Origin: a virus
Taxonomy: Duplodnaviria; Caudoviricetes
Length of the DNA stretch: 64,000 nucleotides
Reading direction: 5' to 3' (one strand)
Virus record (IMG/VR): IMGVR_UViG_3300024259_000011
Made by a program: the position numbers and the translations under genes. The notes under the pieces are model-generated. The model was not told where the DNA came from. It saw only the letters and a program-made list of their open reading frames with translations, and made no database searches. Within the stretch, counting starts at the first letter, position 1; each line of letters begins with the position of its first letter. Of this stretch, positions 1-64,000 are shown in pieces.

Positions 1-681
1 AACAGATCCGGAACCGGTGCTCCCAGTGGGTCCGATCTGAACTAGTTCGCCGTTGTGATTGACATCAGAAGCCTCTGCCGCCAACGTGCCAGAGATGTAG
101 AATCTTAGGTTAATGCTGCCTTTCTGGATCGAGGATCCATAAAAAATAGAAGGCACATCAATAAGGTTCATCTCTTGTGTAGCCTTGTTCCAAGTGCCGA
201 TGCTGGAATCTGAGCCTGTAAAAGCGAAGTGGCGACTAGTTGTCGCAGCACGGTCCAGATTGCTCTTAAGCGCGAAGACGTGTTTCCTGTGATCATTAAC
301 CCTATAGTATATCCTCTGAATCGAAGCTGTCAACTGTGCGCTGCCTGTAATCTCATCGCCATATCCATGTGCGTGATAGCCTGTTGAACTGACTGTGCTG
401 AATGCGTGCATCGACGCGCCCTTGATCAGAAAGGGGTACCGCCAGTTATTTGAGCCACTCATTTTGTCTACATTTGTTTCGTAGAGATCGATTCCTCCCC
501 AGTTGAGAGAAGCAGAACTATTAATGTTGTTTGCGAAAGCGCCCGAGATATGAGTCTTATTATTATAGTGGATCTCAGAGTGACTGCCGCCCGGTCCACG
601 GGCAATCTTGAAGTTTACTTTCGGATATGTCTTGACCCTGTTGTAAAAGAGGTCAGCGTCTTGGAATTTGTAATAAGGCAT
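1..681 (-). CDS. Virion structural (baseplate/tail-associated) protein; N-terminal part only, runs off the left edge
   Basis: Not in the ORF track. Manual translation from the ATG at 681 gives MPYYKFQDADLFYNRVKTYPKVNF...VPSIFYGSSIQKGSINLRFYISGTL..., open to base 1. It shares a 'xIxKGSxxL' motif with the 1345..2565 product. Confidence 0.8.
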   Translation of the reverse strand, partial: MPYYKFQDADLFYNRVKTYPKVNFKIARGPGGSHSEIHYNNKTHISGAFANNINSSASLNWGGIDLYETNVDKMSGSNNWRYPFLIKGASMHAFSTVSSTGYHAHGYGDEITGSAQLTASIQRIYYRVNDHRKHVFALKSNLDRAATTSRHFAFTGSDSSIGTWNKATQEMNLIDVPSIFYGSSIQKGSINLRFYISGTLAAEASDVNHNGELVQIGPTGSTGSGSV

Positions 682-688
682 TCTTTTA

Positions 689-696
689 TAATTAGC
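689..696 (-). promoter_or_regulatory. Putative late-promoter motif (GCTAATTA)
   Basis: CTAATTA lies in the 27-nt gap about 8 nt upstream of the ATG at 681. The same motif class occurs at 3551-3577 and 31246-31253. Confidence 0.4.
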
Positions 697-708
697 GCAG
701 TTCTGTGT

Positions 709-1332
709 TTATTCTGCAGCAACGTATCCGGTAGCTTGGGCGAACTCTTTGAAAACGTTCTGCTTCGATGTATCATTCGGCATCTTAGAATAAACCCATG
801 CGTAGGTCTTCTCCATATAATCCATTGTATCACGAAGTTCGCGATTCTTTGATTCTAAAAGAGAAATATGTTCTTTAGTGGGAGCGGGTAATGAGATCCC
901 TAAGTCTGTTGCGATACACAGTAGGCGATACCATTCGCGCTTCGACGAGGCATCTTGCGCATCTCTGAACATTGCCTCTCGTCGAGCCTGCTCATCTTCG
1001 GTCATGTGCATGATCTTATCGGGATGAGTGGCTTTCGCTATCTTTTTAAAAACCGCGTTTGCAACCGCATTGATTCGCTTTGTTTGCTGTTCGTCCTCGA
1101 CAGCTTCAAGTTCAGTGAATTCTTCTTCAGGATCTGCGCCAGTGTCTCCGGTCTGAAGAATGTACTCCTCAGGAGTAACCAAGCCCATCTCTTCGCGGTA
1201 CTCTTCAAACTCTGCAGAGAATCGAGACTGAGCTTCTTCATACACCAAGCGGCGATAATCGTAGTCTGCGGTCAAGTACCGAAGCTCTAAGATTAGTTTT
1301 TCATATTTCTTTTTTAGTTTCGGCGTAAGCAC
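709..1332 (-). CDS. J-domain (DnaJ-type) co-chaperone
   Basis: FKKIAKATHPDK contains the HPD tripeptide after a basic helix, followed by a helix III-like 'EAMFRDAQDA'. Coiled-coil-like segments flank it. Confidence 0.75.
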   Translation of the reverse strand: MLTPKLKKKYEKLILELRYLTADYDYRRLVYEEAQSRFSAEFEEYREEMGLVTPEEYILQTGDTGADPEEEFTELEAVEDEQQTKRINAVANAVFKKIAKATHPDKIMHMTEDEQARREAMFRDAQDASSKREWYRLLCIATDLGISLPAPTKEHISLLESKNRELRDTMDYMEKTYAWVYSKMPNDTSKQNVFKEFAQATGYVAAE

Positions 1333-1344
1333 ATCTATGCCCGC

Positions 1345-2565
1345 CTAATAATCCAAACGTACTCTCAGCGTCAACTCGTTTGTTGGATCCTTCTTCAGCG
1401 GCTCGGAAAGCTTGGCTACTGCCATCAACTCGTTATCTGATGAATAAAGACCGACGCCAGTGCAATAAGCCACCGGGGTGTCGCTGGATACGTTTTTGAC
1501 GCGGATCTTAGAACCGGTCAGATATGTGGGGTTGGAACTATAGTTGAACTCGTTATGGTTCACTCGACAGAAGTAAATCGTTGAGTTAAGTTCAGTGGTG
1601 TTGTTAAACGAAAGGTTATAAATACGTGTTCTGAACGAGTCGCAACTTGAGGAGATCTCGCGTTCTTTAAGCGAGTCTGCAACATAGTATTCTGCCATTC
1701 CTGAAGAGGATGAAGCGGCATAAGGACCGACATCTGTATCAAAAACGGGTGCCATCGTTGCATCACCGCCGGCAGACGCACTAGTGTTGGCTCCCCATAG
1801 TCCAGAAAGTAGTCCCACGCCATTATGGGTGGTGTAGATCGTGTCAGAAGATGAGACTGACTGAAAGATAGAAGCAGTAATGACTGCTACGCCAGCCTGA
1901 TAATATAGCAAGCCTGCCTTGACATCGGTTGAGCTACCTGCTTCGCCGGCAAGGAAAGTGCTGGAGCCATGGGCATCATAGCTGGTTTCTGCATACAGTA
2001 CAGCATAGTCTCCTGCAGGAGAGTTTACGCGGTAATCATTTTGAGCGTTATAGTCAGTAAGCTTAACACGTCGGTTGAACGCCCCTGAAACGTCTGGCTG
2101 GATTCCAAGCTCCAAACTGAATGAGCCTTTCTTAATCTCGTCCTTAGTTAACAGGCGAGCCATGTTGAGGAAGAATACCTCGCGAAGCTTCGTGCCACCG
2201 GTGAGATCTCCGTCTTCATCAAACTCTTGAATGTCTCCAGATGAGCTATGCCCAACGAGAACCTTCGCCATCTGATTGTACATATTAATCTTCTTAGCGT
2301 TCTGGGTGCTGGATGAACCAGACAAGCCAGAGTTCTTAGAATACCCACATGTGAGGTCAAAGACGTGGTTTGCGGAAGAACTCAGATATGGATAATCATA
2401 AACACTCTGGAACATGCCATGAGCATAGTTCTTGATATTTACCTCACTGGTACCTTCCATGTATGTACCGGAAACTACTGTACCGGTAAGAGGGATTGCT
2501 TCGTTCAAGAGAGTCTTCGTTGAGACCACATCGTTGTTAGAAAAAGTTTTATATGTTGTCGCCAT
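1345..2565 (-). CDS. Virion structural protein (baseplate/tail-collar-like C-terminus)
   Basis: The C-terminal 'TGVGLYSSDNELMAVAKLSEPLKKD...LTLRVRLDY' resembles the C-terminal strands of tail-collar/baseplate proteins. Located in the structural module. Confidence 0.7.
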   Translation of the reverse strand: MATTYKTFSNNDVVSTKTLLNEAIPLTGTVVSGTYMEGTSEVNIKNYAHGMFQSVYDYPYLSSSANHVFDLTCGYSKNSGLSGSSSTQNAKKINMYNQMAKVLVGHSSSGDIQEFDEDGDLTGGTKLREVFFLNMARLLTKDEIKKGSFSLELGIQPDVSGAFNRRVKLTDYNAQNDYRVNSPAGDYAVLYAETSYDAHGSSTFLAGEAGSSTDVKAGLLYYQAGVAVITASIFQSVSSSDTIYTTHNGVGLLSGLWGANTSASAGGDATMAPVFDTDVGPYAASSSSGMAEYYVADSLKEREISSSCDSFRTRIYNLSFNNTTELNSTIYFCRVNHNEFNYSSNPTYLTGSKIRVKNVSSDTPVAYCTGVGLYSSDNELMAVAKLSEPLKKDPTNELTLRVRLDY

Positions 2566-2575
2566 TTTTTAGTCC

Positions 2576-3529
2576 TTATGCCTTCTTAACAAGCCTAACT
2601 GGAATATCGATACTGTAGCCCGTGGTTGCTCCCGTCACTCTCACAATCGTATCAATGTAGTTTGTGAAAGAGGATGAGCTAGGACCATCATCGGTTTGCC
2701 GGTTAATACTAACCGTGCCACTGCCGCCAATCAAGTCGTACAGGTAGGTGCTTGTGTTCAGTTCTAGGCTAGCCTGAATTCTGAACTTAAGAATAGTGCC
2801 TCGCGGTCCACGGATAACTTGTGTGTTGTCCTGTGTGGATGTGGATGTGCTCTCATTTGAACTCACATATCCACTATCGTTAAGGGTCAAGTAATAGCTT
2901 GCAATGCTGTCGTCATCAATGAAGGACGGGTCGGCAAGCGATGTCTTGGTGGGGTGCGCGATTCTGCCCAAGCGGTTATCAATCTCAATGATATACGCGG
3001 TCTCAGCCAGATCTGAATCAATCGTAAAGGTTGGAGGAATCTCGGTGGTGTTTAGCCCCTGATCAATACGGATGTGGGAGGGGGAGTTTAGTGTCTCTCC
3101 TGCCAGCACTCCGTTCGTCTGGGATGCATTAAGACCGCCTGATGCGTTCTTCTCTGTATCTGCATCGACCGCTACAACGAATAACGCGCTTGAATCAAGT
3201 GTCGTTTGCGAGGCGTCAGGCGCACTCGTATTCAACTTCAAGATTGGCAGGTACAGCAAGTTAGTGCGTGAGATCGAGAGCAGCTTGCTCTTCATCATAG
3301 AGCCGTTATTTGTGAACGCCTCCATAACAGGAGATTGTAGAATCTCCAAATCATAATACGCACTACCGTTTGCGTGGTCCTTGTTATAAAGTGAGTAGTC
3401 AATTTCGTCGTCGCTCAAAGCGAACTTACTGATTTTAAAAGAGCCATCGCCCTTTGCGAGTCGATATCTGCCCGTGTCAGTTAATACTGCATCGAGGATG
3501 ATATCGCCCGAGTTATCTAAGAATCCCAT
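2576..3529 (-). CDS. Virion structural protein (tail-collar-like N-terminus)
   Basis: The N-terminal 'IILDAVLTDTGRYRLAKG...ISKFALSDDEIDY' resembles the LTxxGxxxLA...ITxFAxGD start of tail-collar fibre proteins. Paralogous start in 10395..11531. Confidence 0.7.
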   Translation of the reverse strand: MGFLDNSGDIILDAVLTDTGRYRLAKGDGSFKISKFALSDDEIDYSLYNKDHANGSAYYDLEILQSPVMEAFTNNGSMMKSKLLSISRTNLLYLPILKLNTSAPDASQTTLDSSALFVVAVDADTEKNASGGLNASQTNGVLAGETLNSPSHIRIDQGLNTTEIPPTFTIDSDLAETAYIIEIDNRLGRIAHPTKTSLADPSFIDDDSIASYYLTLNDSGYVSSNESTSTSTQDNTQVIRGPRGTILKFRIQASLELNTSTYLYDLIGGSGTVSINRQTDDGPSSSSFTNYIDTIVRVTGATTGYSIDIPVRLVKKA

Positions 3530-3550
3530 TAAACTCTTGTCTCCGTTACT

Positions 3551-3577
3551 TAATTAGTTTATTATACAGTAAATAGT
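3551..3577 (-). promoter_or_regulatory. Putative late promoter: two copies of ACTA(A/T)TTA in the largest intergenic gap
   Basis: The minus strand reads ACTATTTA (3577-3570) and ACTAATTA (3558-3551) in an AT-rich 105-nt gap upstream of the ATG at 3529. Confidence 0.5.
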
Positions 3578-3634
3578 GCTTTCTCTTAAAACATTCTTTT
3601 ACTGCTTGTGTAGCTTCCGTTCTATATCCGTATC

Positions 3635-6600
3635 TCATTTCTCACGGACTCCTGTTTCTTTGTCTCTTGTAGGTGCGCCCTCAATCTCATCTGCCGTTCT
3701 TTCATGCTTTTGGTTGAACTGAATATTCAGGTCTGCTGCTTTTCCGGTAGTTGTTGAAGTGATTCGGGCTTTAAACTTTTTGCCCCATACGTTAGTATCT
3801 GCTAAGCCTAACTGTACGTTACCTTTAGCCGCGTCGAACGCAGAAGTAAGCCCTTCATTCTTAATTAGTATCTGAGAGGGCGTTGGAGCAATTTTAATGT
3901 ACTTGTTAAAATATTTCTTATTTGTTCGCGGGACCAAATCTCTGAAATGGTACTCGCTAATCAGTGGGTAGACTGTGCCGTTTTCGTCCACAATCTCAAC
4001 TTGGAACACTGCAGTCGGATTTGAAACATTGCCATGTACATCGATTTGACGCACCGTGTAATAATATTTTGTATTTGGCATCAGTACATCAATCATGGTG
4101 GCAGCATCTGAATATTTTGGTAGAATATTATTAGCTGGAGCAGTCTCAGCCTCGCTTGGTATTCTAGTCGAAACCTTGTATTTGAGCGCGCCATCGAAAC
4201 TGGCATAGCTGTAAGGCGCAACAGTTGTACGATAAACCTCAAAGAATTCCGGTCGGTCGTCCGACTCATAAAGCAACGGATCGCCGGGTTCAATCTCATG
4301 AGTCTGATAGTCGTACTGATTGGCTGCAGCCTGTTGCTCCGTTTGGTTGAACTTGGGACCATAGCTGGCTTCTTGTGTGTTAATATAAATCGGGTGCATC
4401 TGCTGTCTGCCGACAGTTCCCTTGAATATCAGAAGCATCTTATGGTTAATCCCCTTGTAAGGGATGATTTCAAACTCTGGCACAACAGGGGCTGTGTCGA
4501 ACATCACGACCTTTTGGCTATGGATACGAGTCTTAACAATCTTCAGAACGGGAGTGTACCACACCTGCTGAGAATATGTTGCGTCAGCCCACGCCATCGT
4601 TTTAGTTATTGGGTCTCCCTGCTTTATCCTATTATAAAGTTCGGTAGGGGTTTTGATCAGCGGACTCATATCCAAGACGTTGTTTCCGCTGTTATATTTC
4701 GTTCCAATGACCAAGGTGTAGGCATAGATTTCATAGTTGTATTCTTTGCCATAATGAACTTGTGTGTCTACAAAATCGATATTGGTAATATCTGATGAGT
4801 TGGCAAACCAGAAGTTTTGAATTTCTCTGCCGGTGGCTACATCTGTCTTTCTCACTTGATACACCACAGTTTCTGCGTAGCCTAAGTCGCCTTTGAGGAC
4901 TTGGCTGTAGCTGCGGATATAGTCGGTGACCATATCTTTAATCTTTCCTAGAGCAATGATAGTTTTGATTTGTTGCTCTAAAGTATTCGTCATGCCCTTT
5001 CCGGAAATCGTAGCTGCGTGGGCGTGGAGGCGTCCTGTCATCTCGTCGGTGTTTTGGCGGCTGTTTAAGACAGACTGCAGCCATTTTTCAACATCCAAAA
5101 CTGTTCGGTTGTAAGCTTGGATGGACTGGCGTTGACCTAAGGCAATGCCACCATCATCGCGGCGCTTAAGAGTCATTTTGGGCTGTGATTCAAAAATCGA
5201 TTTGCGGGGTCCGAGGACCGGCTTCTTTGAGGCTGGAATCTCTTGAATAAGACGGGAGTTACCGGGCTGGCTGGCAATCAGTGAATCTATTAAAGTTGGC
5301 ATCAGACCCGCAGTATTGATGTGATCTGAAAACTGTGCAAAATGATCTGCAGTAAAGCTGATCTCCGCATGCAGCGGATAGTTTTCTCTTTGTTGCTGAG
5401 CGTCTTTCGTAATCGAAGAATAGTTGCCGCTGAAACACAGGTTCTTCATGTAGCCTGCAGCTTTAGCAGCTAACGGAGCCATTTCAAAAATCTTACTCAT
5501 TACTTCTCTGGTGAGTGCCGTATCTGCTAGTTGCAAATCGTTGCCAAGGTTTGCGACACCACCCGCAGTCCGTGTAGCATTAAAGCCTCTGACAACTCTT
5601 GCCAAGATTTGCCCATATTCATCCCAATATAAACTAGAAAGCTCCATGCTCTCTTTCGCATCCATTTCCTTTTTGGTCATTTTCCCTTTGAGCCTACCTG
5701 AGACAGCGCTCTTAATCGCGCCGCCCAAAGAGGCGTTAGCCTGTGCAACGTTGCTCGTAACTGGATCGCCCATGGATGTTTCTGCTGCTGACTGCACCAT
5801 AAGAGATGGCAAAAGCAACTCGGGACAATGCTTGGAGAACTTCTCATACCGTTGTGAATAAAAATTGTACTCTGATGATGCATGTGCGTGTGCTGATTTC
5901 CCAGTAGAGGCTAAGATTCTAGATTCCATTCTGTTGAATGGAACATTAACGTACGTTGAGTAATCCTCGTAATCTCTGCCGGCGCCGGCGGTCTGCAATG
6001 TAAACTGTCCGATGTAAGTACGCATCAAGTTCCACATGTACATGGAACCTTCTTGCAACCACATTTTGGGATCGATCCCTTCTTTAATAGCTGCTGCAGT
6101 GCCCTCTTGAGTGTCAAGAAACTTCTGTATCTCTGTCATGCGGTCTGAATCGATGCCGGCAACGTGAGCATAGTATTGGTTAAAGGTGCTCTCGATTGGC
6201 AAAAGCTTAATGTTTTCTTGATATACCGGAAACAAGCCGGCTCTGGCGCCGGCGCTGGATCGGCTTGAATCTCTCCATGATAGCATGCGCTCCTCTTGCC
6301 CGGGAGAAAGAACACCGTCGCCAGTTTTTGGAGTCTGGTCCGAAAAAACAATATCAAACGGTAGCGAGTTAAATGCCATGTTATCAGCTTCTTTCTTCAT
6401 TGAGCCGGAAAGAAACATTATGCTTTTAGGGGGCGCGTCAGTCGGGGATAGATCATTAGGTTCAAGATGAACTGACCATATTCGATTTGCGAAGATCCGG
6501 ACTGGATCGATTTCTGCAAATGCGGCGGTGCCCGACTTATTAACGCCGTCAATTTGTTCCTGAGTCATCTTGTATTCAGTAAAGGCTAAGTCGGTTTCTC

Positions 6601-6835
6601 CAGAGACTTGAGCCTCTGGATCTAATAGGTATTTGTCGGCGCGCTGGAGAGATTTATAAAACCCTAGAATATTGACGCGACTTCCCTTATTGTAAATGGA
6701 AAGACCGCGACCCATTGCCTTGTTGGAGGCGCCTGCAGTTACACCGTAAGCCTTGTCAAACCGCAGCGAACGTGCGGGCAAGTTCAGCCCATACGCAGTA
6801 GTTGAAATCAAATATTGTTTCTTGCCTGATGCCAT
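3635..6835 (-). CDS. Large virion structural protein with FN3-like beta segments
   Basis: 1066 aa. 'FVDTQVHYGKEYNYEIYAY' and 'LMPNTKYYYTVRQIDVHGNVSNP' are FN3-like patterns. Stop-start coupled to the upstream structural gene. Confidence 0.6.
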   Translation of the reverse strand: MASGKKQYLISTTAYGLNLPARSLRFDKAYGVTAGASNKAMGRGLSIYNKGSRVNILGFYKSLQRADKYLLDPEAQVSGETDLAFTEYKMTQEQIDGVNKSGTAAFAEIDPVRIFANRIWSVHLEPNDLSPTDAPPKSIMFLSGSMKKEADNMAFNSLPFDIVFSDQTPKTGDGVLSPGQEERMLSWRDSSRSSAGARAGLFPVYQENIKLLPIESTFNQYYAHVAGIDSDRMTEIQKFLDTQEGTAAAIKEGIDPKMWLQEGSMYMWNLMRTYIGQFTLQTAGAGRDYEDYSTYVNVPFNRMESRILASTGKSAHAHASSEYNFYSQRYEKFSKHCPELLLPSLMVQSAAETSMGDPVTSNVAQANASLGGAIKSAVSGRLKGKMTKKEMDAKESMELSSLYWDEYGQILARVVRGFNATRTAGGVANLGNDLQLADTALTREVMSKIFEMAPLAAKAAGYMKNLCFSGNYSSITKDAQQQRENYPLHAEISFTADHFAQFSDHINTAGLMPTLIDSLIASQPGNSRLIQEIPASKKPVLGPRKSIFESQPKMTLKRRDDGGIALGQRQSIQAYNRTVLDVEKWLQSVLNSRQNTDEMTGRLHAHAATISGKGMTNTLEQQIKTIIALGKIKDMVTDYIRSYSQVLKGDLGYAETVVYQVRKTDVATGREIQNFWFANSSDITNIDFVDTQVHYGKEYNYEIYAYTLVIGTKYNSGNNVLDMSPLIKTPTELYNRIKQGDPITKTMAWADATYSQQVWYTPVLKIVKTRIHSQKVVMFDTAPVVPEFEIIPYKGINHKMLLIFKGTVGRQQMHPIYINTQEASYGPKFNQTEQQAAANQYDYQTHEIEPGDPLLYESDDRPEFFEVYRTTVAPYSYASFDGALKYKVSTRIPSEAETAPANNILPKYSDAATMIDVLMPNTKYYYTVRQIDVHGNVSNPTAVFQVEIVDENGTVYPLISEYHFRDLVPRTNKKYFNKYIKIAPTPSQILIKNEGLTSAFDAAKGNVQLGLADTNVWGKKFKARITSTTTGKAADLNIQFNQKHERTADEIEGAPTRDKETGVREK

Positions 6836-9800
6836 TAGTCTGTATGCAATCCTTCTCTTACAATCTGTGTAGCCGGAGTAGTCAGCCCAATCTTACGCTT
6901 CATACCGGTAAGGGGCGCATCTCCGTTTCCTACAAGAATAAACTTTGCATTCCAGATTGGCAAGTCCATTGCTTTTGGAAACGAAATACGCACAGCTTCA
7001 TTGTTGTAGGGTCGAAGGCGACACAGTATCTGCGTACCCTCTCTTCTATTTAGTGTCACAACCAGACTTTTTTCTAAGGGGAGCCAAATCTCAGAGCCAA
7101 TTGATTTTTCATATTTGGGCTGAAGATTTGATGGGCGGTATCCTGCGAGGAATTCAACTCGTACGTTCATCATAAAGTATAGCTGGTACAACATGTTATA
7201 GAATGGATCGTCCCAGTGAGCCTGATCCATCCGGTTCTTAATGTTGTCCAATACAGAATCTCCGTTCAATGCAGAGATGGCTGCGGCTTGGATGGATGGC
7301 GGGAGCTTGTTCAGCATGCTAGCAAAATGGTTAAACACGGATTCCCAGCTACCAGCGCCCATTTTCGCAGACTCTTCCAACATGAAAAAGACAACTGCCA
7401 TGGCACTAAAGTTGGGTGCATTTGGATCAGCCGGTTTTTGCTTCGTTGAGTGTAAATAGTCTCTTTTGGTAGTGGTTAACATCTGTAAGAGAAAATGAGT
7501 TTCTTGTTCTGTTTCATAGCCGGCTGTGAGGTTCTGAAGGGCTCCAAGGATATCGCTTGTATCAGCGTCAGCGCCCCACTCGGTGCTAGCCATAGCTGAG
7601 GGGAATACATCTTGAAAATCGATCTCGTCATCCTCCTCAACTGTAAGTGTCGCTAACGAAAACATCGATGGGAAGGGTGTACCGGTGCCGCCGTCTTCCA
7701 CTCCGGAAGTCATGGCTCGCGGACTAATCGCGGTCGGATAATCTGACAACTCTCTATCAACTTGCTCTTTAGTCATCAAAGTTGCTCCAAACTCCGGAGC
7801 CAGTGCCTGCCCCAAACGCTGCTTGGAGTCCACTGTAAGAACATTGACCTGATCTGCTTTTCTCTTGGAACCAATATACTGAACAAGGCTTTTAAGAGAA
7901 TCTGTCATAGCAGACATGTCTGGACCGTTTGTGCCGTCAGAGTTCTTATACCTATTTCTAACTGTCTGTAGATTAATGGTATTCTCCGGACCTAGGACAT
8001 TCATCGTGCGTGCAGACAAACATCGGAATGCCGAAGTTGCACTAGGAATAGCTGTTGGGCTAATGAAGTACTTTGTTATTTCCTCGTTGGCTCGGTTAAT
8101 ATAGTCGCTGGTGCTGACCAGCCCAAGAGAGGCTGGACCTCCAGCGGCAGACATCTGCAAGAAAGAGGCTCCCGTAAAAGGAGGCGCGTCTGAATCAAAC
8201 GCATCATTTGCGAAATAAGTCTTATAAGTGATTGTCCGGTTCGTTACCCCGGAGCCACCATTTGGTGTTGATGGGTTAGACGCTGCAGACGAGTTGGATG
8301 CTGGCGTCTCAGCAGAAATCAGGTCTTGAACAACTTTAATATATTTTTCTAATGTGTCGATCACTGCACTGATTCCCCGAGGTGTTCCGGATCTGGGGTT
8401 GCAAATACTGGATAGGTTCTTTCGCATCTTTTCTTTCTTTTGTCGTGTCATCTTTTCGGAAACAACAAGATCCATTAGCTCTACGAAAGCTCTGGGGGCA
8501 GCATCCCATGGGCGTGACCTTCCATATTTGGAAGTGGCAAACTGAAGGAACTCCCTTGTGAATTTGTTTGTTGTCGGATCGTAGTGTCCAACCTGAGTCT
8601 GGTTTCGAGTGTTTGTGTTGGATCTGGCTTCACCGGCAACAATAGCCACTGTTGCCTTGGCGCGCTGACCGTCCGGACTTACAAACTTGGTACCCACATG
8701 TGGGTCTGTGTATGTCATCTTATAACGATTAACCACTGGAATATTCGCGAACACCTCATACTCTCTGAGCCTCGCTACCTGTTTTTGCATACGCTTAAGG
8801 TGGCGAGCAATATATACTGGAACATAATCCCTAACCGTAATCTCGACACCATATTGATATATGCCAACTGTCCGATCTTTAACGCCCATATCTTTCCCGG
8901 TGAAATGCCGGATTCTAAAATCTTTGCCGTTGGAGTCTCCATGGCTGAGTTCGACTTCTCTGACCCCACCACCGCCTTTACGACCTTTCCTCTCCCCGGT
9001 ATCAGCCACAGTAATACGCTGCGTTGGAGGTACCTTGCCGGTGCGATTGGACTTGGACGACACAACAATGTGATCGACCTGCTCGGCGTCCCATGGCTCG
9101 TAAACATTCGGGAATCCTCGGGCGTAGGCACCTTGTTTATGGTGCTTGACCCGGCGTCTCAAAATCTTAATTTCTTGGATCGAGCAACGCCTCAGCACTG
9201 TATCGCGAAGACTGTCTTCGACATTATCAAAGAATCTGCCATACATAGAGTTGTCCTTCATAAAGTCCAAATGGCTATAGCCAAAAAGAAATCCGCATGC
9301 CCGGGAGGAATCAGAAGTCAGATGCACATCGCTGAAGTACTTGTGACGATATGCTGGCAATGTAGTAAAATGTTGTCCTGCTCCGGAAGCTAGCCGATTC
9401 AAGATATTAACCTGTGACAAGTCGATGGTATACGCGGGTACAACATCGTCCACATCCCTAAAGTCGGAGATTCTAGAATCGCCCAGATTAAGCTCGCCGG
9501 CTTCAACAGTGGTAAGCCATTCTCCATTCATGCTATACTGATTCGCATTCATGTTGACTGACGTAGTATTAAGGTTATTATCTTCTAAAAGCGCTTCGAT
9601 GTTTAAAAGCGTACAAACGTAATAGGAAAGATGGCTTGGCGTGGCTGATTTGACTTCAAACTGAAACTTTATCGGAAAGTCATATACGGTATTTCCATTG
9701 GTATCTATGCTGGCAAATCCTGCCAACATCAGATCTTGCTCGGAGATTGCGTTACCAGTTGTAGAACTGTCAATGCTATTCACGATGTCTTGGACTGACG

Positions 9801-11531: not shown

Positions 11532-11536
11532 TTACA

Positions 11537-31253: not shown

Positions 31254-31260
31254 TTCTTTC

Positions 31261-40433: not shown

Positions 40434-40447
40434 GAAGTTTCCTCACA

Positions 40448-41380: not shown

Positions 41381-41396
41381 TTGTTATCCTATTGTG

Positions 41397-45431: not shown

Positions 45432-45435
45432 GCCA

Positions 45436-52215: not shown

Positions 52216-52216
52216 G

Positions 52217-55226: not shown

Positions 55227-55228
55227 CT

Positions 55229-55564: not shown

Positions 55565-55574
55565 TTGTTTCTCC

Positions 55575-56465
55575 TTAATACCTTTGACCCGGGTGGACCT
55601 TGTATTCGTCCTCTCGGGGCTCTTCTCTGTTTGGTCCCACAATCGAGTGGAAAATGTGTACAACGAATGGACCGCCGATGTCAATAAACGGCACGCCTTG
55701 CACTCGTTGGGCAGCTTGGATTCCCCAAAAACTCAGGTTCCAAGTGCGGTCTGGGTTAGAACCCTGAAAATCAATCTCTGAGAAGGTCGTCCCATCCATA
55801 TAATGGCAGTTAAAGTCTGCTCTAACGGTGTGGGCTACAAACCTTACCCTAGGATCTGTAGGGTCTTCAAAGTCTCTACGCATGTCAGCAGCCAAGTCCT
55901 CTGGATCTTGATGCCAAATGTCTTTTAAAACCCGGAGGTCACCGTCGCCCAAAGAATCAGCGTAGTCGCTGCCAAAGTAATAAGTGATCTCATCTGATGG
56001 GACGAAGGCTCCTCGTTGGAGATATTGTAGAATTTCATCTTTTTGAATATATTCTTTTGCATTAGCGGTTGGTGGGGTAAAGATAAAGCGACTATCAGTA
56101 CTTATTGACGTGTCAATATCTCCCAAGCCCTTCATAAAGTTGGCAGAAACCCCATAATCTGACTTTAACATTAGTACTTTAGCAGGATTTGCCTCTTGAC
56201 AATGACTAGTTAAATAAAGCATGTCCTGCCCAAGAGTCTTTCCATCGCTCTTGGGCAGGATCTCAATCTTATCAAAATGGTGTCGAAGCCTATATTTATC
56301 GATCAGACCGAGAAGCTTGTTGTTCGGCAACTCCTGAGGGTGGGTATTGTAGATGTACATTACATCAAACTTATAATCCACGCTCTGGTTTGCCAAAGAG
56401 TTAAAACAAATGTCAGCATGCTCTTCGCCTAATGTGGCATGCGTGTTAAAGTAGCAGATTCTCAA
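55575..56465 (-). CDS. Putative glycosyltransferase-like protein
   Basis: TTG start overlapping the upstream TGA. 'LMLKSDY' DxD-like site and late 'VVHIFH'. Located in the glycan cluster. Confidence 0.45.
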   Translation of the reverse strand: MRICYFNTHATLGEEHADICFNSLANQSVDYKFDVMYIYNTHPQELPNNKLLGLIDKYRLRHHFDKIEILPKSDGKTLGQDMLYLTSHCQEANPAKVLMLKSDYGVSANFMKGLGDIDTSISTDSRFIFTPPTANAKEYIQKDEILQYLQRGAFVPSDEITYYFGSDYADSLGDGDLRVLKDIWHQDPEDLAADMRRDFEDPTDPRVRFVAHTVRADFNCHYMDGTTFSEIDFQGSNPDRTWNLSFWGIQAAQRVQGVPFIDIGGPFVVHIFHSIVGPNREEPREDEYKVHPGQRY

Positions 56466-57232
56466 AGTACTACCTCATAATATTGTCCCTTGGGTTTAAT
56501 AATCTTACAGTCTTGCATTTCCTCGATTGTTGCCTCGTCAAGAGGAAGCTGAAATGAGCTTCTTTCGGGGTGCAAGCGCGCACGAAGGTCTAAGATGTTC
56601 GGGCGCTTGCCGCCAGTCATCGCAACTCCGTCCATAATATGCATAACGTACTGCCGGTCAGTGGCAAGGATTTGATAGCCGTCATTTTTCGAGCGTTCGA
56701 TTCCCTTCACTTCGTACTCCCAACAGTCTTCTCCACGAATCAAGTATTTCATTAGATAATCCTTGTTCCAGATGTTAAAGCGCAGAGCCAGACGATAGCT
56801 GGCGTCTTGTGTTAACTCAATTATATCATACTCTCCGCGATTTTCAACTAAATTGTTGCTGCGCTGAGAGGGACCGGGGGTTAAATCGACTCGTCCAATC
56901 TTTGGATTGAGGCGATCTACCAAATCATTATAGATTGACATGTCAAGCGGCTTAAGAAAAAACTCATTCTCAAGCATATGCACAAAGTATTCGTCTTCGA
57001 TGCCTTTGAAATAATCAAGATGATCATCGGTCCAGTACTTCAGACCGCGTTGTTCGCCCAAAGAGACGAACTCATAGTTAGATGGAAGGTCGAACTGCGG
57101 ATGGTCAAACCCTACGATTACGACTTTCTGTTCTGGCGACCAAAACTTGTTTAATAGGAAGCTGAATGGTCGCAGGATATGCAGATAATCGTTAGATGTA
57201 AAGACGTATACATTTAAATCTTGTGTTGTCAT
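56462..57232 (-). CDS. Putative glycosyltransferase-like protein
   Basis: 'VYVFTSN.Y...FLLNKFW...YFVHMLENEFF...NIWNK.YL...WEYE'. Start placed at the ATG at 57232. Confidence 0.55.
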   Translation of the reverse strand: MTTQDLNVYVFTSNDYLHILRPFSFLLNKFWSPEQKVVIVGFDHPQFDLPSNYEFVSLGEQRGLKYWTDDHLDYFKGIEDEYFVHMLENEFFLKPLDMSIYNDLVDRLNPKIGRVDLTPGPSQRSNNLVENRGEYDIIELTQDASYRLALRFNIWNKDYLMKYLIRGEDCWEYEVKGIERSKNDGYQILATDRQYVMHIMDGVAMTGGKRPNILDLRARLHPERSSFQLPLDEATIEEMQDCKIIKPKGQYYEVVL

Positions 57233-57233
57233 G

Positions 57234-58052
57234 TCAGCCCCCTTGAATAAAGTATGTGACGATAGAGTTTTCGATAGGCTTGCCATGCCAGAAGGCTTTT
57301 AAACCATGGTGTTCACCCAAGCTGGCTAACGTATCTTTGCTGAAATAATATAAATGCTCTGCCGGCTTGATGTGTTTCCACTCTACGCCTTCGTTTTTAT
57401 AGTTCTCGCATTCAATATCATGAGTACCTACGACAAGCACACCCTTAGGGGATAGTCTCTTCACCATCTCAGCCATTAAAATGTCCGGGCGAGCAACGTG
57501 TTCAATAGTATTAAAGCACATGATGACATCAAACGTGCCATTGTCGTAATCCTCAATGTATCCCTGCTCTAGAGGGACAGCATACTTTTCGATGCCCTCA
57601 TCAACATCTTGTTGGTTGGGGTCGATCCCATGCGCTGAGAATCCTGCCTCTTGTGCCGCATCGACTAGGAAACCCATTGAGCAGCCAACATCGAGAAACC
57701 TGCCAGTCGGATTAAACCGCAAAGGCGGAGGCAGCAGGCGATAAAAGCTTTGAAGAAAGCCAATGCGTTCAACAGAAATCATTTCAAACTCTTCACAGCG
57801 CTCATCAATCCTGCGCTCACCGATGCTGGTTTGATACTCTCGCCAGTAGTCGCCCTCGTACTTGTCACTCCAGTGATCGTTGGGTTGTGGCGGGTGGGAT
57901 GCAATGAAACCACAGTTGGAGCATTGTTTAATATCAAGCTTTTGCTTGCCGCGCCGGGACGCAGGCAAGTCAGAAAACTTATGCACAATCTTACGACGTT
58001 TTCCGCCGCAAATCAAGCATCCGCTTTTTTCTGTTCTATCCTTCATTCGCAT
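57234..58052 (-). CDS. Class I SAM-dependent methyltransferase with N-terminal Zn ribbon (sugar methyltransferase-like)
   Basis: 'CLICGG...CSNCG', 'FLDVGCSMG', 'GIDP', 'FDVIMCFNTIEHV', 'HLYYFS'. Confidence 0.9.
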   Translation of the reverse strand: MRMKDRTEKSGCLICGGKRRKIVHKFSDLPASRRGKQKLDIKQCSNCGFIASHPPQPNDHWSDKYEGDYWREYQTSIGERRIDERCEEFEMISVERIGFLQSFYRLLPPPLRFNPTGRFLDVGCSMGFLVDAAQEAGFSAHGIDPNQQDVDEGIEKYAVPLEQGYIEDYDNGTFDVIMCFNTIEHVARPDILMAEMVKRLSPKGVLVVGTHDIECENYKNEGVEWKHIKPAEHLYYFSKDTLASLGEHHGLKAFWHGKPIENSIVTYFIQGG

Positions 58053-58950
58053 ACCATGTGTTTTTGCCGATAGTGATGGCTTCATAAATTGTATTCCATA
58101 GATTATACTTGTTGAGGATTAGCTCTCTCGCCTCAGTCATCGCCGGAATATGATCTTCAAAGTTGTCCTCTTCGAGAAGCTTAATAATCCGTTCTATTTC
58201 ATTATGATTTCGAGCATCGAACGGAATGTAAGAGCCCTCGGGAAAGAACTCATGAATGTTGGAGATTCCGGGTGCAACATTATAAATAGGCAAAGCCCAA
58301 GACAGTAATGTATCTGTGAATTGTGTTGCGAAATAATTTGGGTAAGTTCCATTGTCGAAAGCCAAGCAATAACGGTAGTCTTTAAGAGTATTATACTTGT
58401 CATCGTCTTTAATTTCAAGCACAAAATCAGTTAATTCTGGAAGTTTACTGATTCGTCCGTATAAATCAAACTTATCAGCGTGGCGCTTTTGTAGTTCTTT
58501 AACAAACTGTACGCGGGTATCCATGCCCGGTAGCCATGTCTTTTCAGAAACAGTGCAAGACATTCCTTTGTTCTTTTTCTGGGGCTGTAGCTTGAGCAGT
58601 TGATCATAAGTTTTTGTATACCCGGAGCGCTCGCAGTACCAGAAGCTAGAAAAGTAAGATTCACCGGTCAGGAAGGAGAACCGCCTGATACGTGGATCCA
58701 TTGGTCCCATACCTCGACCGACACCCCGGGGCTCACGACTAAAATAGAAAGTCTTGTTAGCATCCGGTGTCTGGTGATCTGTTGCTTCCAAGATAACGTA
58801 GTAGTCGGCATCGTTTATATCCGGCACTCCCTTCATATCTTTCCACACGCCAGAGTTCCCGGGCGTTTGCCGCTTGGCTCGCTCCAGCAGTTCATTCTGG
58901 CTCATGTTGTCCATGCCGCGTGAGGGCATAAAGTAAATCTTAAAACTCAT
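58036..58950 (-). CDS. Glycosyltransferase family 10-like protein (fucosyltransferase fold)
   Basis: 'FDLYG...KYNTLKDYRYCLAFDN...LPIY' matches the GT10 C-terminal motif, but the canonical TEK reads ATQ. Confidence 0.7.
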   Translation of the reverse strand: MSFKIYFMPSRGMDNMSQNELLERAKRQTPGNSGVWKDMKGVPDINDADYYVILEATDHQTPDANKTFYFSREPRGVGRGMGPMDPRIRRFSFLTGESYFSSFWYCERSGYTKTYDQLLKLQPQKKNKGMSCTVSEKTWLPGMDTRVQFVKELQKRHADKFDLYGRISKLPELTDFVLEIKDDDKYNTLKDYRYCLAFDNGTYPNYFATQFTDTLLSWALPIYNVAPGISNIHEFFPEGSYIPFDARNHNEIERIIKLLEEDNFEDHIPAMTEARELILNKYNLWNTIYEAITIGKNTWYANEG

Positions 58951-58952
58951 TG

Positions 58953-59759
58953 TTAATCTCTGCAGTCTCTATAGTGGTAGTTAAATGTTGTTAACTGATC
59001 GCCCCAAGCCTGCTCCAGTAGATGTACTTGGCGGAGCGTGTACTTGTCTTTATGCGTTTCTTCAACTGGGTTTATATTGCTTTCTTCTGCAGCAACGTTC
59101 CGATATGGAATCTCGTTCCTTTCGCACCAACTGGTAAAGTCTGTCTGTAGATATTCGGTTCTCAATATGTTTTCCATCTTAGGAATCAAAGTTCCGTCTT
59201 TCCTGTATAGCTGGGCAAATAAGTTCTGCTTAAGTGGCGGAATGTGCCAGTCCTTTCCCTCATCCAAATAATGCTCTACAAAATCATGAAATGTGGTTGT
59301 TCCCATAATCGCATTGCAGCCAAACCAGCCGCCGTGGTTATCAGTTGTTGCAACCCAATCGTCCATGTACTTTGGACGATACCGCCAATATGAATAAAAT
59401 AAATCAAATGGATTCCTGATAATCGTAACGTAGCCTATGTGGTCATTCTCTTCCGTATAGTCTGGGCTGAACTTAAGATGATATGGCATGTCCTCCAGAA
59501 ACGGCATATGAAAATATTTTGTAGCTTTGGGCTTCCATCCGTTGACTGTAAACCTATACGGAAATGAATGTCCTAGATTCTCTACTTTAGCCCCTAGGGG
59601 TTCAACCGAATCCGCCTTTGACACTACATGCTTTCCTAGATTGTCCATCAGATAGAGATATTCCATCTTTTCTGGGGGAGGCTTAAAAGCATCAAGTGAG
59701 TTCTTAAGCCAAGTCCCTCCCGTTTTGGGAACATGAATAAATAGCCATTTAGAAATCAT
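58953..59759 (-). CDS. Sulfotransferase (Sulfotransfer_2-like)
   Basis: 5'-PSB 'FIHVPKTGGTWLK' and 3'-PB-like 'IIRNPFD..YS'. True start is the ATG at 59759, overlapping the upstream stop. Confidence 0.8.
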   Translation of the reverse strand: MISKWLFIHVPKTGGTWLKNSLDAFKPPPEKMEYLYLMDNLGKHVVSKADSVEPLGAKVENLGHSFPYRFTVNGWKPKATKYFHMPFLEDMPYHLKFSPDYTEENDHIGYVTIIRNPFDLFYSYWRYRPKYMDDWVATTDNHGGWFGCNAIMGTTTFHDFVEHYLDEGKDWHIPPLKQNLFAQLYRKDGTLIPKMENILRTEYLQTDFTSWCERNEIPYRNVAAEESNINPVEETHKDKYTLRQVHLLEQAWGDQLTTFNYHYRDCRD

Positions 59760-61197
59760 AGTCGAACATCTCAATGTCTTCTTGATATCTCTCCGCAACT
59801 TTGGCACGGAGGTTGTCAGTATAGTAATCTTTGTAGGCGCCGGAGTTCGAGGAAACGTTAATGTTCCCAAGCTCGTTGTCAATATTGACGTTGGCACACA
59901 AATACGCCCATTCTTCTTCGATGTTCTCCAGCTTTCCAACATGGTTAACGAATACTTCACCGCGATGTGTGATGAATGTATGTTGTGACCTGAAATGGTC
60001 TTCCGCCAACTCATCTGGAATTGCGCAGACCGCATCTGCGAAATCAGAGAACGTCATGTCAGGCTGAAATAAGTCTCCGTAGTTTTTTACCAAAGCGCGG
60101 TGGACGCCATTCTCATAAAAATCGTTTGTATCTCCAGACGCAAGAATCTTATTCTTATAGCAAGAGACAAGTCGATCCCATGGATTGCGAACTATTGCGA
60201 ACTTTAGATAATCCCACACACGGTCTGTAGCCATCAAATGCTTAGATGCGATTGGCCAATTGGCAGCGTGCATCGCCTCAAAAGAGTGTAAGTCGTTAAA
60301 TACATCCTCTTTAGCTTCGGTGCTGATATTCACTTCTACGTCGAACTTGGTCGCCAGCGCCATTTTAAGACTGCTGCATGCGACCTTTGGAATGAAAGTA
60401 TACACAAACCGATTTGCCTCTGAGACAATGCAGGTCGATGGGTATTGCCCATGTTCCTGCGGGAGTGTTGCATAAGGACGCTTGGCACGAATCTCATTCT
60501 CCGTTCGGATCTGCAACTCGTTATCAATCTTATGATCGTTTAGCGGGTTTGACATATTGTAAACGTATAAAGGTTCAGTTACGTGAGTGCTCTTTGCTCC
60601 AGCCATCTCCAGCATTGGGAACATGAAAGCTAAGTCCCATGCCATGCGGTAAAAGTTGCCATCAGTGTCCTTAAGATCTGCAGGGTCAATGCGCTTCCAC
60701 AGGTCGTGCTTAAACGTACGCAAGTGAGAAGCCTGCCACGGGGATCTTCTTAAGACACTATTAGCTACCCATTCGTTAGGGATTTGCTTCGCAAACTTAC
60801 CCTTCATCCCAGATGGATATTCGGCGTAGCTACCGTAAGTCATTCTGCAATCTGAGTTCTTATAGATTTGGTCTAAAGCATACAATACGTCTCTGCGAGA
60901 CAGCCAGTCATCACCGTCAAGGGTTACAATAACGTCTTCCGGGGAGGGGTCTGCGATCTTAATGCCATCGTAAATATTCTTAAGAGCATATGCTTTTTCT
61001 TGCACCTCAATAAATATAAAGCGAGGGTCATCACCGATCTCTTCGCGTACAATCTTTGCTGTACCATCTGTTGACATGTCATCCAATAGGATACATTGGA
61101 AATCTTTATAGTCCTGCGCCTTGACCGAACGAATACAAACTTTAATCCACTTCTCTACGTTGTAAAACGGAACAATGATTTTAAAATGGTTACCCAT
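59749..61197 (-). CDS. GT2 glycosyltransferase / Sulfotransfer_2 fusion
   Basis: N-terminal 'IIVPFYN...DDMSTD...LDGDDWL'. C-terminal 'FIPKVACSSLK...IVRNPWDRLVSCY...HFRSQ...GKLE'. Confidence 0.88.
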   Translation of the reverse strand: MGNHFKIIVPFYNVEKWIKVCIRSVKAQDYKDFQCILLDDMSTDGTAKIVREEIGDDPRFIFIEVQEKAYALKNIYDGIKIADPSPEDVIVTLDGDDWLSRRDVLYALDQIYKNSDCRMTYGSYAEYPSGMKGKFAKQIPNEWVANSVLRRSPWQASHLRTFKHDLWKRIDPADLKDTDGNFYRMAWDLAFMFPMLEMAGAKSTHVTEPLYVYNMSNPLNDHKIDNELQIRTENEIRAKRPYATLPQEHGQYPSTCIVSEANRFVYTFIPKVACSSLKMALATKFDVEVNISTEAKEDVFNDLHSFEAMHAANWPIASKHLMATDRVWDYLKFAIVRNPWDRLVSCYKNKILASGDTNDFYENGVHRALVKNYGDLFQPDMTFSDFADAVCAIPDELAEDHFRSQHTFITHRGEVFVNHVGKLENIEEEWAYLCANVNIDNELGNINVSSNSGAYKDYYTDNLRAKVAERYQEDIEMFDYDF

Positions 61198-62041
61198 TTA
61201 ATATCCCCTTCACGATCTGCGGAATCTCTTCTCGTTTCTGATGCATTACCTCAATAAGTTCTGTGCCCTTGAGCCCAAACCACTTTTCTTTAGTGGCGCC
61301 AACATTCTGATTTGTAATAACTGTCATACCCATCATCCTAGCTTCAACTGCGATGCGGGAAAGTGTCTCTGGTGTCTGTGGGAAGAACACAATTCTTTTA
61401 TAGCTTCCGAGCCTTTGCAGGAACTCATGATAATCACAAGGAGCGATCAGTTCATATTTTAGTTGCTTCATCCTGCAGTAGCGTACGGCTCCAACAGTAT
61501 TCTTGTGCCAGTTGTCAGTCTGCATAATCGCACAGGTGTCCACCTTCTCTTGACTTGACAAGTCTTTCATGAGGGACAGGCTTTCTGGCGACCAAAGGTT
61601 GCCGCCCAAACTCTTGATGGTTTCCAACCCTAAGTTCTTCCGTACGATATCCGCGTGGAAATCTGATTGGCACAATACTGCTGCAGCATTCTTATAAAGC
61701 TCATAGTGAACAATATCCGACCGGGGTACCTGATAATCTGGGTACTCTGCTGGGTTACGATTACGCACGTATTTATGATCGTGCTCGTAAATAATGTACT
61801 TCGCTTTTTCAACCAGCTTTTTATAACTTTGATATGGTAGTTGAAGAAAGTTAGAAACAATATAATAGTCTACCAGTCCATACTCGATGGCAACAGGGTC
61901 TAAGTTTCTACTCTTGACTTTCATGATATGAAAATCGGCAGAAAGAAGCTTAATAAGTTCATCGTTATTCACTTCTCCTCCGCCGCTGATCTCGTCAGCA
62001 AAGAAATCAGCTACAAATGCTATTGTTGGCTTTCTGCTCAT
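61190..62041 (-). CDS. GT-B fold (GT4-like) glycosyltransferase
   Basis: 'GGGEVNN', 'YEHDHK', 'VLCQS..H', 'ETLSRIAVEARMMG'. Confidence 0.7.
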   Translation of the reverse strand: MSRKPTIAFVADFFADEISGGGEVNNDELIKLLSADFHIMKVKSRNLDPVAIEYGLVDYYIVSNFLQLPYQSYKKLVEKAKYIIYEHDHKYVRNRNPAEYPDYQVPRSDIVHYELYKNAAAVLCQSDFHADIVRKNLGLETIKSLGGNLWSPESLSLMKDLSSQEKVDTCAIMQTDNWHKNTVGAVRYCRMKQLKYELIAPCDYHEFLQRLGSYKRIVFFPQTPETLSRIAVEARMMGMTVITNQNVGATKEKWFGLKGTELIEVMHQKREEIPQIVKGILNG

Positions 62042-62270
62042 TCATTCTTTCCTTAAAATCTTCTTTGTCCTCTACATGCCCTTCTTCAAACCACATAACA
62101 TCGCCATGCTTGTTTCGCAGGACGCCATAAGTTATATGGTCGGAATAAACGTGATGCTGACGAACTTCAGTTACAACGCCGAAGCCGGCATCGCGACCCA
62201 TGATACCTTCTGCATATGCTTCGTACCATCGGACAAACTGTCCAACTTCGTATTTATTCGTGCTCTTCAA
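62007..62270 (-). CDS. Small hypothetical protein (SH3/KOW-like beta barrel)
   Basis: TTG start at 62270 with a GGAGG RBS. 'YEVGQFVRW...GFGVVTEV...YGVL...WFEE'. Has a 35-nt 3' overlap with the next gene. Confidence 0.5.
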   Translation of the reverse strand: MKSTNKYEVGQFVRWYEAYAEGIMGRDAGFGVVTEVRQHHVYSDHITYGVLRNKHGDVMWFEEGHVEDKEDFKERMNEQKANNSICS

Positions 62271-63534
62271 CGCCAGCCTCCAACTCAGTAAGCCATGCAT
62301 CGATGTCTAACTTCTGATCGCCGGCGAATGCCTCGCAAAACTCTGCATACTTTTGTTCAGCAGTAAAGTTGGCAAGTAGGTGCTTCTTGAGTCGAGTTGC
62401 CTGTCCCTTATAACGGGAGGAGTCTTTATACAGTGCCCGCATTTGCTTCTTCGCGCTGTCTTCCGTTGGCTCACACCACTGTGAACCTTTCACCAATACC
62501 CCTTCCCACACTACATCGTCGGGAATGTCAACCATGGTGTGTTCCACCTTAAGAAAGTGAGGTCGAAGCTTGTCGCTTTTCTTGCTGTTGCTGGGGGCAA
62601 ACAAAAAGTCCATCTGCCCACTCCACGCAGGAGCGATAACTGGAAGACCTTCGTATGCTGCCTCAAATAGCGGAAGCCCGAAACCCTCTCCGTGTGTCAA
62701 AGTGACGAGGGCATTGATCTGAGGGTGTCGATATAGAGTATGCATTTCTGCCTCAGACATGTGACCATGAACCAAGTGAATCTTGCACTTCCTATTCGGG
62801 AACTGACTCAGCGCTTCAGCCAATTGCTTCTTAACAAAGTCGCGGTCCATGTTGGAGGCATTCATATGGAAGACCTTAAGCACCAGCCCAGCATCCTCGT
62901 TGTCATTAAACTCTTCGATGAACCATTTCATCATATTAGGTACATTCTTGCGCGGACCCCACTGGGCTACGCACAGAAGGTTAAAATCTGTGCTGAACTC
63001 CAGTCCGAGATCAACTGATTCAAAACTCTTAACCGGATAGTTGACAGCAGTGACTGGGACTTGAACGCTAGCGACACCAATCTTTTCATTGGTCTGGCGA
63101 TCCATGATTGTGTATTCCGTACCTTCGTATACTTCCTTGGCATGGTTTGAGACCACAATAATGCGGTCCATATCTCGGGACTTCTCGATCCATTGAGGGG
63201 CGACCCGGGTTGTTTCAATCCCAGCGGTGTACCCGACATTGACCGGTGCGATCTTCTGCCACTCATTGGGAATGGTTACCTGCAAAGATATATCATACTC
63301 TCCGTTTTGTTGGTTGTGCTGTACCGTCTTATGCAGAATATTGTCCAGCCATTCTCGCTCTTCGTTGTCTTCATGAATCCAGCCGGTCTGACCCCAGCTA
63401 GTAGTATTCAAGTAGATATCGTATTGGTCTTCTTGTGATCGCAGAGAGCGTAAAGCAAATCGAGTTTGCTCTCCGTATCCGGACAATGTTAATGCCGGTC
63501 CAACGACTATCACCTTTGGTCTGTTATCACTCAT
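62254..63534 (-). CDS. GT4 (glycosyltransferase group 1) protein
   Basis: 'LSGYGEQTR', 'RKN', 'HGEGFGLPLFEAA...PVIA..WSG..DF'. Start at 63534 (ATGA overlap). Confidence 0.88.
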   Translation of the reverse strand: MSDNRPKVIVVGPALTLSGYGEQTRFALRSLRSQEDQYDIYLNTTSWGQTGWIHEDNEEREWLDNILHKTVQHNQQNGEYDISLQVTIPNEWQKIAPVNVGYTAGIETTRVAPQWIEKSRDMDRIIVVSNHAKEVYEGTEYTIMDRQTNEKIGVASVQVPVTAVNYPVKSFESVDLGLEFSTDFNLLCVAQWGPRKNVPNMMKWFIEEFNDNEDAGLVLKVFHMNASNMDRDFVKKQLAEALSQFPNRKCKIHLVHGHMSEAEMHTLYRHPQINALVTLTHGEGFGLPLFEAAYEGLPVIAPAWSGQMDFLFAPSNSKKSDKLRPHFLKVEHTMVDIPDDVVWEGVLVKGSQWCEPTEDSAKKQMRALYKDSSRYKGQATRLKKHLLANFTAEQKYAEFCEAFAGDQKLDIDAWLTELEAGVEEHE

Positions 63535-64000
63535 AGCTCTGTATGCTCCCATCCTTTATAGTTTTTGCGACCGTCTGGGTGGTTCCAAGAACCATAGTGT
63601 TCATATGCTTCTTCTAACAGGCTAACCCAGCGGTCAGTATATACCTGAAAGTTATAGTTATTGAGCGTGTGCTCTCGACCGGCTAGCCCCAACTTGGAGC
63701 GGTCTGCCGAAGACATCTCATATACCTTCTTAAGAGCCGAAACAAGCTGCTGAGAACCAATCCTGTCTTCGTAGATATAAGGTACGTCTTGGGAGCCAAT
63801 AACTGCCTTTGAAGAGGGCTCAAGCCCGATGCCAAACCAGTTTGTCCCGTCTGTAACCTGCTCCTGCAAGCCGCCGGTCATGGTGACAATGATAGGAGTA
63901 CCACAAGAAAGTGATTCCAGTGTTGCCAAGCCAAAGCCTTCTGCGTCACTAATGTTAACCGTGCAATCAGCAGCGTTATACATCATAGCTAAACGATCCG
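63531..64000 (-). CDS. GT4 glycosyltransferase; C-terminal part only, starts beyond the right edge
   Basis: 'YNAADCTVNISDAEGFGLATLESLSCGTPII'. The frame is open to base 64000. Confidence 0.88.
   Translation of the reverse strand, partial: DRLAMMYNAADCTVNISDAEGFGLATLESLSCGTPIIVTMTGGLQEQVTDGTNWFGIGLEPSSKAVIGSQDVPYIYEDRIGSQQLVSALKKVYEMSSADRSKLGLAGREHTLNNYNFQVYTDRWVSLLEEAYEHYGSWNHPDGRKNYKGWEHTEL

Follow-up and report, generated by a model that had tools for sequence, protein, structure and literature searches.

The pentanucleotide CCWGG (CCAGG or CCTGG) is completely absent from a 64,000-nucleotide stretch of viral DNA (IMG/VR record IMGVR_UViG_3300024259_000011; hereafter the window, i.e., the whole stretch that was analyzed), which belongs to an uncultured marine T4-like myovirus. 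This absence probably reflects restriction-site avoidance directed against an orthodox Type II enzyme of the host that recognizes CCWGG. The purge is imposed at the level of DNA, extends over the whole genome in relatives of the virus, has been kept across saturating synonymous divergence, and varies from lineage to lineage. We infer that the selection is exerted by a restriction enzyme of the host, one of a kind that cleaves at single sites.

Results

CCWGG is missing in every codon phase

An earlier note on this DNA had claimed that CCAGG and CCTGG are absent from both strands against an expectation of about 100 sites, and had proposed that the claim be checked by computation against Markov and codon-shuffled nulls. 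A program count gave zero for each word on both strands of the 64,000 bases. When synonymous codons were shuffled within each gene, so that proteins and codon usage were preserved, 103.4 +/- 7.8 CCWGG sites were expected (minimum 81 in 300 shuffles; z = -13), and Markov models of maximal order, order 2, and order 1 predicted 68, 95, and 101 sites, respectively. The Poisson probability of finding none is approximately 1e-45. Both kinds of null thus confirmed the deficit, and the codon-aware expectation agrees with the figure given earlier.

The codons themselves show how the word is kept out. The 63 Pro-Gly pairs of the window use CCC (35) or CCG (28) for proline and never CCA or CCT, against 33 CCW codons expected. 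Codons of the form NCC (Ser, Pro, Thr, or Ala) do not occur before TGG or AGG (0 versus 20 expected), and the arrangement NNC-CWG-GNN does not occur either (0 versus 54.5 expected). Among 629 contexts in which Gln or Leu is followed by a codon that begins with G, the preceding codon ends in C in 179 cases and CAG or CTG is used in 109, and the two are never found together. Pro codons before Trp are CCA (13), CCG (3), and CCT (1), the same three spellings that had been reported. Because the word is missing in every codon phase, the constraint acts at the DNA level and is not a codon-pair or translational one. A codon-pair explanation is refuted by these counts, and di-codon bias, which the earlier note had named beforehand as a way in which its claim might fail, is ruled out.

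The deficit was taken up by neighbors that differ from CCWGG by one substitution: CCSGG gained 45 sites, CTWGG/CCWAG 26, and the remaining two classes 17 and 15. CCGG and CCSGG are present 307 and 123 times in the window; in the comparison with the synonymous-codon shuffle they are enriched (303 versus 215 and 121 versus 77 expected, respectively), and this excess is partly a by-product of the CCWGG purge. It had been proposed that CCGG is conspicuous because Pro-Gly is forced into CCC or CCG. The forcing holds for all 63 pairs and accounts for about 33 of the 88 excess CCGG sites. The hexanucleotides CCCGGG (29 versus 7 expected) and GCCGGC (47 versus 18) are enriched as well, which the purges explain only partly.

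The purge is maintained in close relatives and switched on and off in others

Relatives were retrieved by their baseplate protein, and comprised 13 IMG/VR loci, the best 80 metagenome loci, and the best 80 further IMG/VR loci; in each of the two later scans, more than 500 relatives were confirmed, of which the best 80 were kept. In the three close relatives G001-G003 (74-77% amino acid identity), the whole records are purged. Observed and expected counts are 1/179 for CCWGG, 11/334 for GGCC, and 0/176 for SAGCTS in G001 (141 kb), 0/86 for CCWGG and 7/176 for GGCC in G002 (59 kb), and 1/75 and 6/154, respectively, in G003 (52 kb).

Within conserved residues, 64% of four-fold sites differ between the window and G001, i.e., synonymous sites are near saturation. 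Nonetheless, CCC or CCG is the spelling of proline in all 39 conserved Pro-Gly pairs of either genome, with a switch between these two codons in 21 pairs. More than half of the Pro codons in the same comparison that are not followed by a G-starting codon have A or T as their third base. The CCWGG purge is thus under ongoing purifying selection, because the conserved Pro-Gly pairs stay CCC or CCG despite the 64% four-fold divergence.

Other relatives lack one purge or several. In G005, a syntenic sister, CCWGG (17/24), GGCC (47/51), and AATT are normal, SAGCTS and CWCGWG are still missing, and conserved Pro-Gly pairs use CCA or CCT in 6 of 12 cases. In locus L036 (Ga0163180_10004639), which is 81% identical to G001 in DNA across the baseplate region, CCWGG is absent (0/10) and GGCC is back at expectation (19/21), with the GGCC sites spread through conserved genes; here, the CCWGG and GGCC purges are uncoupled.

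The avoidance states were mapped on a FastTree phylogeny of the baseplate protein, the 94 rows of which were the window, the 13 IMG/VR loci retrieved first, and the 80 loci from metagenomes. Of the 70 loci that could be scored for CCWGG, 24 avoid it, which requires at least 7 changes on the tree; for GGCC, 26 of 81 loci do so, and at least 14 changes are required. Avoidance of CCWGG is heritable but labile, because at least 7 changes are needed compared with about 20 when labels are shuffled. Thirteen loci avoid both words, 35 avoid neither, 8 avoid only CCWGG, and 9 avoid only GGCC; independent contrasts hinted at co-occurrence of the two purges, which was not significant. Other lineages purge GGWCC, AGCT, CGCG, TCGA, GATC, or AATT. 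A complete genome of 184 kb (G011; L193-L202) contains no CCWGG (253 expected), no AGCT (590 expected), and none of more than 20 six-base palindromes, including AAGCTT, CCATGG, CGATCG, CTGCAG, and GATATC. A second complete genome (G012; 192 kb, with terminal repeats) has 1 CCWGG against 186 expected and a normal number of GGCC.

Virion and glycan genes share the same depletion

The window has a GC content of 47.2%, is about 98% coding, and carries all of its genes on the minus strand. Its main regions are as follows:

1..47015, minus strand: virion and baseplate genes, including giant open reading frames (ORFs) of 5456, 2927, and 1344 amino acids; free of CCWGG
29405-31222, minus strand: baseplate wedge ORF, which matches baseplate wedge families
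47245..64000, minus strand: glycan synthesis cluster, identified by Pfam matches; free of CCWGG

The protein of 1344 amino acids contains Amidase_2 and Peptidase_M23 domains. The ORFs of 5456 and 2927 amino acids occupy positions 11537-27907 and 31650-40433 in the baseplate/tail region, and the latter protein retains just about 50% identity in the close relative G005. Pfam matches in the glycan cluster indicate a GDP-mannose dehydratase, a DegT aminotransferase, a HAD-nucleotidyltransferase, a GT2-sulfotransferase, and a GT4-like enzyme. G001, the closest long relative, carries genes for a T4-type portal, prohead protease, tail sheath, tail tube (gp19), gp15, and terminase; by virtue of these T4-type virion genes, the element in the window is classified as an uncultured T4-like myovirus. 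No near-identical DNA was found among GenBank phages.

The earlier note had stated that the gap runs through both the structural and the glycan genes, and that the glycan cluster is therefore long-resident. The first statement is borne out by the counts: positions 1..47015 contain 0 CCWGG against 81.4 expected, and the glycan cluster contains 0 against 23.4 +/- 4.1 (minimum 11 in 200 shuffles). GGCC is similarly depleted in the two regions (6 versus 156 and 1 versus 39.3 expected), and so is AATT (76 versus 237.5 and 27 versus 83.4), for which the observed/expected ratio of 0.32 in the glycan cluster equals that in the structural genes. The genes of the glycan cluster are all colinear in G001 and G003, with 47-97% amino acid identity, and four-fold sites in these two relatives differ from those of the window by 61-64%; G005 keeps at least the first gene of the cluster in place. 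Long residence is supported by the complete lack of CCWGG in the cluster, by the AATT ratio shared with the structural genes, and by the colinearity in G001 and G003. As shown by L036, site content re-equilibrates within approximately 20% DNA divergence, so that absent sites serve as a coarse clock only. Because this equilibration takes about as long as the saturation of synonymous sites, the absence of sites is of restricted value for dating gene acquisitions.

Other words are purged besides CCWGG

According to the synonymous shuffle, several further words are avoided in the window: GGCC (7 versus 194 expected), SAGCTS (1 versus 59.5), CWCGWG (0 versus 29.5), TTCGAA (0 versus 21.6), and CAGCTG (0 versus 19), together with a partial depletion of AATT (103 versus 320). 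The single SAGCTS site is located as follows:

27952..27957, no strand assigned: GAGCTG, the only SAGCTS site in the window (59.5 expected)

CCSGG and GGWCC are not avoided, and the targets are hence strictly CCWGG and GGCC rather than CCNGG or GGNCC. Enzymes of the CCNGG type (ScrFI/SsoII) were considered as the selector and rejected; they would purge CCSGG too, which is enriched.

CCWGG and GGCC had been put forward together as a usable fingerprint of the host. Since each of the four possible combinations of avoidance is found among relatives, the two words seem to be under separate pressures. As a fingerprint the pair is incomplete, because SAGCTS, CWCGWG, TTCGAA, and AATT are avoided as well; moreover, it flips between close relatives, and no host has been matched to it. 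The accompanying suggestion that the host lacks systems for CCGG, GATC, and GCGC does not follow. GATC and GCGC occur 253 and 236 times in the window, but non-avoidance of a word cannot show that an enzyme is absent, and the CCGG excess is partly a by-product of the purge.

All residual GGCC sites of the window are TGGCCA

All seven GGCC sites that remain in the window lie in the hexanucleotide TGGCCA, where they encode Trp-Pro in frame as TGG-CCA:

11816..11821, minus strand: residual GGCC site 1 of 7, TGGCCA
18476..18481, minus strand: residual GGCC site 2 of 7, TGGCCA
22676..22681, minus strand: residual GGCC site 3 of 7, TGGCCA
34761..34766, minus strand: residual GGCC site 4 of 7, TGGCCA
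35334..35339, minus strand: residual GGCC site 5 of 7, TGGCCA
41871..41876, minus strand: residual GGCC site 6 of 7, TGGCCA
60253..60258, minus strand: residual GGCC site 7 of 7, TGGCCA, within the glycan cluster

The spelling TGG-CCB is never used in the window; among all Pro codons, the share of CCA is 33%. With 7 occurrences against an expectation of 14.6, Trp-Pro itself is at about half its expected number. Six of the Trp-Pro pairs can be aligned between the window and G001, and these read TGGCCA in both. Nearly all GGCC sites that remain in this lineage and in independent GGCC-avoiding lineages fall in Trp-Pro pairs, for which TGG-CCA is the predominant spelling. In independent lineages that avoid GGCC, including the complete G011, the remaining GGCC sites are mostly TGGCCA, which constitutes at most 34% of TGGCCN in non-avoiders. 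The lone CCWGG sites of G001 (at 137277) and of G003 (at 28465) both read CCTGGCCA and lie at non-orthologous loci. TGGCCA thus seems to be exempt from both purges.

It is conceivable, albeit doubtful, that TGGCCA is exempt from both the GGCC and the CCWGG purge by being methylated on phage DNA by an MscI/BalI-like methylase of the host or the phage. Such methylation would protect it against the GGCC-cutting and the CCWGG-cutting enzyme alike. A TGGCCA motif carrying 5-methylcytosine and lacking a REBASE match was described in Pacific metagenome-assembled genomes (MAGs) (PMC8919816). If the exemption does have this origin, the phage would combine site deletion with one hidden methylation.

Discussion

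How a host enzyme could empty the genome of CCWGG

Restriction-site avoidance would operate as follows. The phage DNA is apparently unprotected at the cytosines of CCWGG, and a host enzyme would cut the unmethylated site, so that a newly arisen CCWGG would be lethal or costly upon entry into the cell. Purifying selection would then clear CCWGG through synonymous changes, leaving the spelling rules seen here, i.e., CCC or CCG-GGN for Pro-Gly, no NCC before TGG or AGG, and no C-ending codon before CAG-G or CTG-G. Similar pressures would act independently on GGCC, SAGCTS, CWCGWG, and TTCGAA; that on AATT would be weaker.

As to the kind of enzyme, coliphages T7 and T3 offer a useful comparison. 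In these virulent phages, the same word is under-represented, and EcoRII, the enzyme in question, requires two sites, such that sparse sites are tolerated. The count in the window is exactly zero, which would thus be more in keeping with an orthodox Type II enzyme that cuts at single sites, such as those of the MvaI/BstNI/PspGI kind, than with EcoRII. The counts that bear on this point are 0 CCWGG in the window (64 kb), in G002 (59 kb), and in G011 (184 kb), and 1 in G001 (141 kb).

In non-temperate double-stranded DNA phages that lack other protection, orthodox Type II sites are typically eliminated (Rusinov et al. 2018, PMC6286503). The present case resembles those surveyed there in that a short palindromic Type II-type site is eliminated synonymously from a phage with T4-like virion genes, and in that multiple sites are purged together with no methylase in view. 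It differs from them in that a 5-bp site is fully purged over 64-184 kb and in that avoidance goes on and off across uncultured relatives.

The same words recur in other ocean viruses. Methylated CCWGG, GGCC, GGWCC, RGCY, GAGCTC, and CYCGRG were found in marine viral MAGs; in Myoviridae-like ones, CCWGG, GGCC/RGCY, and GGWCC are methylated in varying combinations (Hiraoka et al. 2022, PMC8919816; Seong et al. 2022, PMC9516812). This suggests that other ocean viruses protect by methylation the sites that are deleted here. The two groups share the ocean setting, largely the same words, and combinations that differ among relatives; those viruses methylate, often with methylase genes of their own, whereas in the lineage of the window the sites are removed, and the records examined yielded no methylase. 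The 21 longest related records, two of them complete genomes, contained no C5 methylase (PF00145), and N4/N6 methylases occurred in just 2. Neither PF00145 nor PF01555 or PF02086 was matched in G001-G005, and searches of G011 for C5 and N4/N6 methylases were likewise negative. The non-avoiding relatives G006-G010, the records of which are only 12-37% complete, had no methylase match either. The family NF033764 (GltF) had no match in G001-G005, nor in the ORFs of G001 at the expected place.

Several points weigh against a host CCWGG enzyme as the cause. A search of 185,579 species genomes by transfer-messenger RNA (tmRNA) tag found no host, and hence no cognate enzyme. The tmRNA of G001 encodes the tag ANNNNHFDSARLAA, and two back-translated patterns of this tag were used; one had no match, and the other matched a single contig of 11 kb (L032; CAZNKX010000014.1, labeled as a Candidatus Woesearchaeota MAG), the tmRNA tag of which, ANNNNNFESVRLAA, is near that of G001. 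This contig is probably a mis-binned phage contig. In addition, the baseplate protein is at most 31% identical to that of any cultured phage. The 64 kb analyzed are part of a genome, and a nuclease or methylase gene may lie beyond them. Finally, the type of enzyme is something that we infer from site number.

Alternative explanations

The phage itself might make or inject a nuclease specific for CCWGG that destroys host DNA, in which case its own genome must be free of the site. This is improbable. In G001, the ORFs of at least 120 amino acids on the flanks of the shared region gave a single nuclease family, a generic PD-(D/E)XK nuclease. Many phage nucleases would be required to account for the five or more distinct motifs purged from the window and the more than 20 purged from G011. 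No gene of the EcoRII-C or MvaI/BcnI family was found in G001-G005, a weak negative given that control genomes were also unmatched.

A slightly smaller probability attaches to avoidance of methylation, whereby a Dcm-like methylase of one host would mark the progeny and Type IV enzymes of the next host would cut them. The signature expected at the DNA level is the same, and methylated CCWGG does exist on marine viral genomes (PMC8919816, PMC9516812). Modification-dependent enzymes, however, cause only weak avoidance (Rusinov et al. 2018, PMC6286503), and total elimination implies that even a single site is costly, which is better suited to direct cleavage.

Mutational decay without selection, in which 5-methylcytosine at CCWGG deaminates to give CTWGG/CCWAG, is very improbable. 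The slight excess of these products (241 versus 215 expected) is in the direction predicted, but they account for only about 26 of some 104 missing sites, with 45 having gone to CCSGG and 32 elsewhere; these neighbor counts largely refute an origin by deamination only. Furthermore, decay would not result in an exact zero over hundreds of kb, and the toggling of conserved Pro-Gly codons between C and G consists of transversions. In Escherichia coli, very-short-patch repair by Dcm/Vsr raises CCWGG and lowers CTWGG. The window, with no CCWGG and a slight excess of CTWGG/CCWAG, is unlike that signature, and the CCWGG word is their common point.

Chance, codon-pair (translational) bias, or an assembly artefact can be dismissed as having a negligible probability, in view of the Poisson probability, the emptiness of all three codon phases, and the fact that independent assemblies (IMG/VR and other ocean metagenomes) share the purge while a syntenic sister genome is without it.

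Implications for the phage family

Avoidance of host restriction by loss of sites, the reading we favor, is a textbook mechanism, and the window alone adds little to it. The value of the case lies in the family-wide switching of purged words and in the apparent exemption of TGGCCA. Across a group of more than 500 uncultured ocean relatives, with no cultured representative, purges of CCWGG, GGCC, GGWCC, AGCT, CGCG, TCGA, and GATC are combined in various ways, and the combinations can differ even among near relatives. These combinations would constitute a readable record of the restriction specificities in their hosts and, given ocean methylomes, could pair phage lineages with host populations.

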